Assembly: GCA_977017575.1 (NCBI GenBank) | Contig: CDRNVI010000248.1 | Span: forward strand, 1 to 8,227 | Direction: 5' to 3' | Length of the DNA stretch: 8,227 nt | DNA from: Paramoeba atlantica | Lineage: Eukaryota > Protista > Discosea | In this document: in pieces, positions 1,380 through 2,205 of the stretch | How the letters are laid out: the number at the start of each line of letters is the position of its first letter | Position numbering within the stretch: position 1 is the first letter of the stretch | Translations under genes and position numbers: made by a program | The notes under the pieces: model-generated | What the model was told of the DNA's origin: nothing | What the model saw: only the letters and a program-made list of their open reading frames with translations | The model's database searches: none

Positions 1380-1618
1380 TGATTATCGTACATTCTTATT
1401 ACATGAAAACAAAAAAGAACATACAACAGGGAAATACTAAGATACTTTAATAACTATTATGTATATAAATTGATCGAATATATAATTACAAAAATAATTT
1501 AAAATATTCAATAATATTAAATATATATAGTTATTAAAGTGATCTTGTATCCTAGTTCATGTCGATTCTTTTAGGTTTTCATGTAATAAGAATGTACGAT
1601 AATCAACATCTGATTTTG
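1367..1618. repeat. Perfect 44-bp inverted repeat (1367-1410 / 1575-1618) enclosing a 14-bp perfect inner stem (1444-1457 / 1527-1540)
   Basis: CAAAATCAGATGTTGATTATCGTACATTCTTATTACATGAAAAC is the exact reverse complement of 1575-1618. ACTTTAATAACTAT pairs with ATAGTTATTAAAGT. Confidence 0.93.
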
Positions 1619-1914
1619 ACTCAAAGTAGAGTAATCATCGTTAAATATCAGTACAAAACTTATTACAAAGAAAACAACTAATAAAGCATCGACATGAAAT
1701 TCTGCTAAGATTTCTACGAAATTCAAGCAGAAAATTACACTAAGATTTCCTATAGAAATTCAAGTGTAAACAAACATTAGTATTGCAAAAACAATCTATG
1801 TTTGTATTAAAAAAAACACATCTAGAACAATATAATATAAATCAATAAAAATATTTAATTACAAAAATAATATAAAATATAATTTATAAATTTATTATTA
1901 AAATGATCTAGATG
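1556..1914 (+). repeat. Structured module A (~360 nt): rod hairpin, two internal-loop hairpins, variable hairpin, CAAAAA-loop hairpin
   Basis: 75-bp core 1575-1649 is 73/75 identical to 1941-2015. Closing stem TTCATGTCGAT/ATCGACATGAA at 1556-1566/1688-1698. CTAAGATTT..AAATTCAAG occurs twice. Confidence 0.85.
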
Positions 1915-1918
1915 AACA

Positions 1919-2205
1919 TATTCCTGGGTATTCTAATGTGGTTTTCATGTAATAAACATGTACGATAATCAACATCTGATTTTGACTCAAAGTAGAGTAA
2001 TCATCGTTAAATATCGTATAAAGTTTATTAATAATAAAACCACAAAGGAATCCAAGGAATAATTATGCTAAGATTTATACTAAATTCAAGCATAAGATTG
2101 CACTAAGATTTCCTTCAGAAATTCAAGTGCAAATATCCGCTCAACTTATAAAATATAAGTGGCGTCTATATATTTAATCATTACAAAAATAATGAATTAA
2201 ATAGA
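1919..2205 (+). repeat. Structured module B, diverged direct copy of module A (offset 363-366 bp)
   Basis: Core 1941-2015. Closing stems TATTCCT/AGGAATA (1919-25/2055-61) and TGTGGTTTT/AAAACCACA (1937-45/2036-44). Same order of downstream hairpins as module A. Confidence 0.85.

Follow-up and report, generated by a model that had tools for sequence, protein, structure and literature searches.

The window (the whole stretch of DNA analysed here, 8227 bases) holds 1.77 head-to-tail copies of a unit 4656 bp long, and the listed unit parts up to position 3571 reappear at +4656. The copies differ at six positions within the window, all inside 3187-3540 (versus 7843-8196); these cluster at the window end, and one of them, 3252, is a common variant in the sequencing runs. 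The pattern suggests a mosaic of sequence classes in this segment, and it is as compatible with a chromosomal array as with a multimer. The positions of the features are collected in Table 1.

Table 1. Features of the repeat unit, by position in the window
Feature	Position	Strand	Description
One full unit copy	1..4656	.	27% GC; partial second copy 4657-8227; no credible ORF
Module D	922..950	-	29-nt apical core identical to 1351-1379 (apex of C), inside another stem
Module C, inverted paralogue	1301..1432	-	z -6.5; own 3' arm
AT-rich imperfect palindrome, 125 nt	1428..1552	.	flanked by the divergent modules C and A; both arms contain a TATTAAAG box
Module A	1556..1805	+	long interrupted stem 1556-1698, twin hairpins, third hairpin 1770-1805
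76-nt conserved core of A	1574..1649	+	copy in B at 1940-2015, two differences
Hairpin 1 of 5	1700..1732	+	invariant TAAGATTT / AAATTCAA internal-loop motif
Hairpin 2 of 5	1735..1769	+	
Module B	1909..2168	+	closing stem 1909-12/2165-68, long stem 1919-2061, twin hairpins, third hairpin 2138-2164
Hairpin 3 of 5	2063..2095	+	
Hairpin 4 of 5	2098..2132	+	
Hairpin 5 of 5	2206..2240	+	beyond the coordinates of the initial annotation; another outer stem
Second repeat family	3549..4647	+	nine copies of TTCCA(A/T)CA in hairpin units spaced roughly 90-270 nt
Phased A/T tracts, about 1.8 kb	3800..5606	.	period 10.15-10.2 bp; continues past the unit junction as far as position 950 in the following copy

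The longest stop-free frame has 172 codons under tables 1, 3, 4, 5 and 9 (the standard and common mitochondrial codes), and the five ORFs tested matched no Pfam family. Protein coding was rejected over 18 NCBI tables, where long frames appear only with codes that drop TAA, on both strands alike. A replication-protein ORF, by which a plasmid or small DNA virus would be recognized, is absent from the unit, and no helper replicon or Rep gene was found. Searches for tRNA in the window and for rRNA or gene fragments in the unit were also negative. Predicted pairing is widespread: of 12 windows across the unit, 10 have more pairing that holds on both strands than any of six shuffles. Of 17 windows examined for A/T-tract periodicity, five exceeded each of 200 shuffles, and these five lie inside the domain from 3800 to 950; AA/TT steps carry no 10-bp signal across the remaining 2.85 kb.

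The unit or part of it occurs in 17 of the 24 public sequencing runs listed, from 13 studies. The best four runs (share 0.73-1.00) represent one organism and one study, and the same several sequence classes recur in all four; the best of them may itself be the source of the window. In run X1, 574,154 of 3,479,311 contigs lie on the unit, contigs cross the window's unit boundary, and single joints reach a depth of 25,000; the head-to-tail copies fit circles and arrays alike. Among 46 joint ends drawn from the matches listed, beyond which more than 1,500 further rows existed, 40 lie within 1 nt of GATC, GANTC, CTNAG or TTAA, compared with 14% of all positions. The joints are therefore Hi-C-type ligation products of double-stranded DNA. 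Depth in such libraries gives no copy number; the unit must presumably make up a large share of the X1 library. None of the runs listed that contain the unit is an RNA run, and the loose ends listed (545 and 147 further rows existed) include no high-depth exit to coding DNA. Runs X5, X10 and X12, from other organisms, hold near-identical low-depth pieces (depth about 2-34), several of them ending at restriction sites. Such pieces are most simply library cross-talk, a shared passenger being the alternative. The 13 rows from the other organisms (B to M) were accordingly rejected as independent homologues, the three examined being pieces of this kind.

Modules A and B had been described in an initial annotation as duplicates of about 360 nt that keep their base pairing while the paired sequence has changed. 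The period is indeed 366 nt between the cores (363 nt between the 73-nt twin-hairpin blocks, which are 88% alike), but the folded part spans only about 250 nt, the remainder being AT-rich spacer. All of the quoted helix arms lie where they had been placed (1556/1688 and 1575/1670 in A, 1919/2055 and 1937/2036 in B), as do the inner arms (1582-90/1659-67 in A, 1950-57/2023-30 in B), and the quoted helices have mean pair probabilities of 0.94-0.99 in the predicted folds. The outermost helices of A and B cannot be aligned letter by letter, yet they sit at the same place, as had been claimed. The two core differences were said to be matched on the opposite arm; one is a true change on both sides, from G-C to A-U, whereas the other converts an A.A mismatch to C-G. 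In a hand-chosen set of 45 homologous pairs, 38 are the same in A and B, four changed on both sides, one changed on one side, one was gained and one was lost in B. Read from the sequence, B is additionally without pairs equivalent to 1582-83/1666-67 of A. The A/B region is repeated without change 4656 nt further on, and this recurrence is no independent support for the fold.

Both modules fold far better than shuffled sequence, with RNA z values of -9.96 for A and -8.16 for B (0 of 200 shuffles as good) and DNA values of -10.8 and -8.9. The opposite strands give -9.3 and -7.8, so that both strands fold about equally. Neutral divergence, which the initial annotation had proposed to simulate, does not reproduce the folds. 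When either module was randomly mutated at the 83 of 285 alignment columns that differ between A and B, in a model that leaves out template switching, none of 300 copies reached the real energy in either direction (means of -48 and -44 against -77 and -76 kcal/mol). The long-span pair count is less discriminating, being matched by 8 and 6 of 300 neutral copies.

The twin hairpins of A and B, together with a fifth copy, provide a second set of comparisons. All 55 cells of the five-hairpin alignment are paired, compared with 12-50% in slid controls, and five of six outer pairs have changed on both sides. The internal loop and inner stem are invariant across the five copies, while the adjacent outer helix varies. 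None of 500 shuffles equalled the pairing score or the covariation score, 8 of 500 matched the pair count and 221 of 500 the pair-type count; the hairpins are related copies, so these shuffle counts are no probability. A likely protein site is the invariant loop, of which each class has one to three copies. The loop sequence allows two adenines over a G.U wobble in all five hairpins. The 11-nt tetraloop receptor has two loop letters on its opposite strand, and the hairpin has three (CAA). On the UAAG strand of the hairpin loop, the two adenines over G.U would correspond to an internal-loop element of the 11-nt GAAA receptor as portrayed in the accessible part of PMC2275092. We found no GAAA tetraloop hairpin on the plus strand that could serve as the receptor's partner; the plus-strand GNRA loops with stems of at least five pairs are two, both GUAA and both far away.

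Module C is a paralogue in inverse orientation. Its positions 1367-1410 (44 nt) are identical to 1575-1618, which is the 5' arm of A, and its outer helix is a third different sequence at the place occupied by the outer helices of A and B. The strand of C and D is opposite to that of A and B, and C and A point away from the palindrome. The apical hairpin of C and D could also be drawn in A and B, where it is 5.5 kcal/mol worse than the predicted fold, though it is common to all four cores. A further sequence class, with a changed C and a single plus-strand module E, is read from joints 1413-1848, 1890-1940 and 1675-2097 in run X4, with matching loose ends in X2; the similar depths of the pieces (790-830 in X4) would place them on one molecule. 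Module E has only the second twin hairpin, a 7-bp closing stem (AGAAGCT/AGCTTCT) and 16 outer pairs by eye, with one G.T and two single bulges. Its outer helix is the fourth of its kind, those of A, B, C and E being unrelated in sequence and at one position. A loose end behind 1657, together with a variant at 1617-18, suggests yet another module; both are listed for X1, X2 and X3 but not X4.

Standing variation gives a divided picture. Five variants fall in A and B. Four are at unpaired positions of the predicted core (bulge or loop) and the fifth replaces T.G by C-G, so that none breaks a helix. Over the whole unit, 22 of 48 variant positions are paired, compared with 62% of all unit positions, and 2626/2676 is the only pair restored on both sides; 4154/4190 becomes T.T. 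(The 48 positions are those among the rows listed plus the window's own differences, with 74 further rows existing, after exclusion of one spacer row and of two rows in which 1984/1993 is listed again for the second copy.) The pair at 2626-2676, which ends a 51-nt hairpin, changes from A-T to G-C in the commoner class of X1 and X5.

Selection on intrastrand pairing is thus supported, and more strongly than the initial annotation could show, because the five hairpins covary, third and fourth outer helices exist, and none of the five variants in A and B breaks a helix. The wider claim, of functional folded domains rather than neutral satellite DNA, is supported in part, and its second half goes too far. 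The modules sit in a very abundant head-to-tail, high-copy, non-coding unit, which is what a satellite or macrosatellite looks like, and compensatory change, taken before as the standard signature of selection, can also arise in one step by template switching, according to the accessible part of PMC8794818. The unit could accordingly be a complex satellite whose folds are without function, template switching during replication making and repairing palindromes in a way that mimics compensatory evolution. Our neutral model covered random column changes, with such events outside it; moreover, the unit is full of fold-backs, including one of 296 nt at 614-909, both strands fold alike, and where a standing variant falls on a paired site, the pair is mostly broken. 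We consider this explanation improbable, the least likely of those discussed here. Copying from arm to arm would tend to erase an asymmetric loop, and the loop is invariant in all five hairpins while the neighboring helix changes. The apices are not inverted copies of one another, conservation within the 76-nt core is the same for unpaired and paired parts, C keeps the same 44 nt with another partner, and four unrelated outer helices occupy one position in A, B, C and E.

No known family with this architecture had been recognized in the initial annotation, and none has emerged since. The best match of the window in Rfam 15 reached 26.3 bits against a cut-off of 100, and the nine weak matches of region 850-2300 were all far under cut-off. 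Distant blastn searches found no homologue in plasmids or phages. Taken with the lack of prokaryotic matches, the library type and the A-tract period, this points to a eukaryotic host. Pattern scans returned single short matches only (46 and 1 viral loci, 63 metagenome loci and 31 genome loci), three viral pattern scans returned nothing, and blastn of the unit against 140 collected loci gave only 25-30-nt matches, in six loci. Locus L141 was dismissed as a chance match. A model of the hairpin scores 48-53 bits on the window copies and 27-32 bits on 3 of 47 viral loci, matches that were rejected since those loci had all been pre-selected by the pattern itself. The literature within our coverage, outside which most subscription papers lie, held no gene-free structured high-copy circle or loop motif that fits, and this is no proof of absence from print.

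The modules could alternatively be genes for structured RNAs. In this reading, which is a serious one although we think it doubtful, the unit belongs to a chromosomal tandem array of non-coding RNA genes, with A, B and E as structured RNAs of about 250-260 nt from the plus strand, C from the minus strand, and the repeated hairpins binding protein. Closing stems around B and E and interrupted helices would suit an RNA, a TATTAAA box stands upstream of A, B and C, and the anatomy of interrupted stems, a multibranch closure and an invariant AA-over-G.U loop resembles RNA more than DNA origins. The tract period of the unit, 10.15-10.2 bp, is nucleosome-like. The recurrence of the same classes in all four runs of the one organism also speaks for this reading. 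A precedent exists in the germline of a nematode, Auanema rhodense, where the accessible part of the report (10.64898/2026.08.27.747507) describes multi-megabase tandem blocks with many non-coding RNA loci, likewise head-to-tail non-coding DNA forming a large share of the genome. The nematode units are, however, only 167-504 nt long or known RNA genes, and that part of the report mentions no covarying structure. Other observations also weigh against RNA genes: the absence of an Rfam match; internal runs of four T in A and B, which sit badly with polymerase III; the pairing in 10 of the 12 windows, by which structure is not limited to gene-sized islands; and joint depths of at least 25,000 at single ligation points, which are extreme.

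Signals of the strand in use conflict. The G.T pairs at variable helix positions (1960/2019, 1934/2047 and 2141/2161) are on the plus strand, where as G.U they would favor a plus-strand RNA. The invariant core, in contrast, has two G.T pairs on the minus strand, and GNA triloops, which are stable in DNA rather than RNA, number nine on the minus strand and three on the plus strand; both favor the minus strand. An attempt to assign the strand by comparing G.T with A.C mismatches over the whole unit was abandoned, as these were too few and balanced.

We find it unlikely that the unit is organellar non-coding DNA, either similar to kinetoplast minicircles or an amplified mitochondrial control region, with the modules as origin or transcription signals. 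Organelle-heavy DNA has precedents, as organellar DNA makes up 49-93% of the total in kinetoplastids and diplonemids, and Cryptobia has some 8,400 minicircles of 4.2 kb (accessible part of PMC6334171). Minicircles such as the 4.2-kb circles of Cryptobia helicis share with our unit the absence of protein genes, a size of several kilobases and a very high copy number, and also the several classes, AT-richness and periodic A/T tracts beside conserved blocks, as far as the accessible parts of PMC6334171 and PMC7515712 describe them. The huge DNA share of the unit, its several classes and AT-rich composition, its phased A-tract region (bent DNA, at a period of 10.15-10.2 from 3800 to 950) and its mild but consistent strand skew (GC skew -0.075) are all in line with an organellar origin. 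On the other hand, few classes are visible, there is no visible guide-RNA repertoire, there is no tRNA, rRNA or gene piece, and none of the loose ends listed leads at high depth into coding DNA. CSB-3, the universal minicircle sequence, whose role in minicircles is treated in PMC7515712 and PMC9679448 (accessible parts), does not occur above chance in the unit. The best match to its 12-mer has four mismatches and is equalled by all 60 shuffles, and the 15-mer match is equalled by 27 of 60. The conserved elements of the unit are instead long covarying stems and repeated internal-loop hairpins.

What the evidence establishes is a real, well-supported family of folded modules inside a gene-free, very abundant DNA unit; from it we infer a mechanism. 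Since the unit is without genes, its own upkeep would be the simplest task left for conserved signals. Our preferred explanation, which we hold tentatively, is that the modules are folded single-stranded signals by which host proteins copy a gene-free, plasmid-like multicopy unit. The palindrome, as the putative opening site, would open or fire divergent transcription, and the outward-running strand, either nascent primer RNA or displaced DNA, would then fold into the long stem and twin hairpins. Two invariant elements, the core and the internal loop that the five hairpins share, may bind host factors. The outer helices would need only to pair, hence their drift by compensatory change. Packaging or partition would be the task of the domain of phased A tracts and of the motif iterated nine times. 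Against replication signals stands the standing variation of the whole unit, which is mostly not compensatory.

The relation between C and A bears on the proposed starting point. When C and A are exposed on one strand, their 44-nt perfect complementarity would override both local folds, and this could be an off-switch. In equilibrium predictions a strand must start at or beyond 1400 for A to retain its stems, and a minus strand at or below 1580 for C to do so; outside these limits the C:A duplex wins. Because compensation preserves the two local folds, the strands on which they form probably begin in the palindrome. Folding during synthesis could form A and C locally without a start between them, and this weakens the first step of the mechanism.

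In its layout, which brings together an AT-rich palindrome, conserved boxes in inverted orientation, iterated motifs and bent DNA, the unit resembles replication origins. An origin with divergent single-strand initiation hairpins is known in the IncQ oriV, with its ssiA and ssiB sites, which is similar in its AT-rich center, its inverted conserved elements on opposite strands and its iterated motifs elsewhere. The unit differs in having no Rep genes and no similarity to plasmid records, and its modules are far longer and branched. Cryptic gene-free mitochondrial plasmids and non-autonomous satellite replicons are kept as monomers and multimers by direct and inverted repeats in cis; like the unit, they are gene-free, and the proposed cis signals of the unit are likewise made of such repeats. 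The unit is, however, larger than these plasmids and has a nucleosome-like periodicity and four to six paralogous folded modules, and no helper was found. The stem-loop origin nonanucleotide of CRESS-virus satellites, sought as two nonamers, had no exact match in the unit, the best match having one mismatch. A comparable layout is seen at the origin of kinetoplast minicircles (accessible part of PMC7515712).

A more specific form of the replication hypothesis, which we regard as rather unlikely, is a selfish gene-free eukaryotic DNA replicon of 4.7 kb, folded from end to end, that takes a large share of the host's DNA and recruits the copying machinery purely through folded modules not previously described, as a DNA counterpart of viroids. 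Multi-kilobase non-coding DNA of this abundance is usually filed as satellite and masked; the DNA described here has a structural motif that clearly covaries and belongs to no known family. Should the unit prove to be a free replicon, it would show that folded signals alone can run a gene-free parasite or minichromosome in a eukaryote; should it prove to be an RNA array, it would represent a massively amplified RNA class not known before. In both cases the five-copy hairpin, being small and well defined, could serve as bait for the protein that recognizes it.

The unit has several further elements. The TTCCA(A/T)CA motifs of 3549-4647 are possibly a second module family or iterons; several pair with antisense partners, and each stands beside a hairpin of different sequence. 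The fold-back at 614-909, within the phased A-tract domain, is imperfect, with many single mismatches. Region 2400-2780 is GC-richer than the rest and holds a chain of hairpins, with a reversed GC skew, and is the only part where the skew is clearly positive. Sigma-70 promoters were discarded as candidates (13 seen, 17 expected). A single terminator-like hairpin followed by a T run occurs on the plus strand at 984-1004 (0.2 expected). A TTACAAAAA(TAAT) mini-palindrome is found at 1486, 1859 and 2181, upstream of A, B and hairpin 5, and again at 2268, after hairpin 5.
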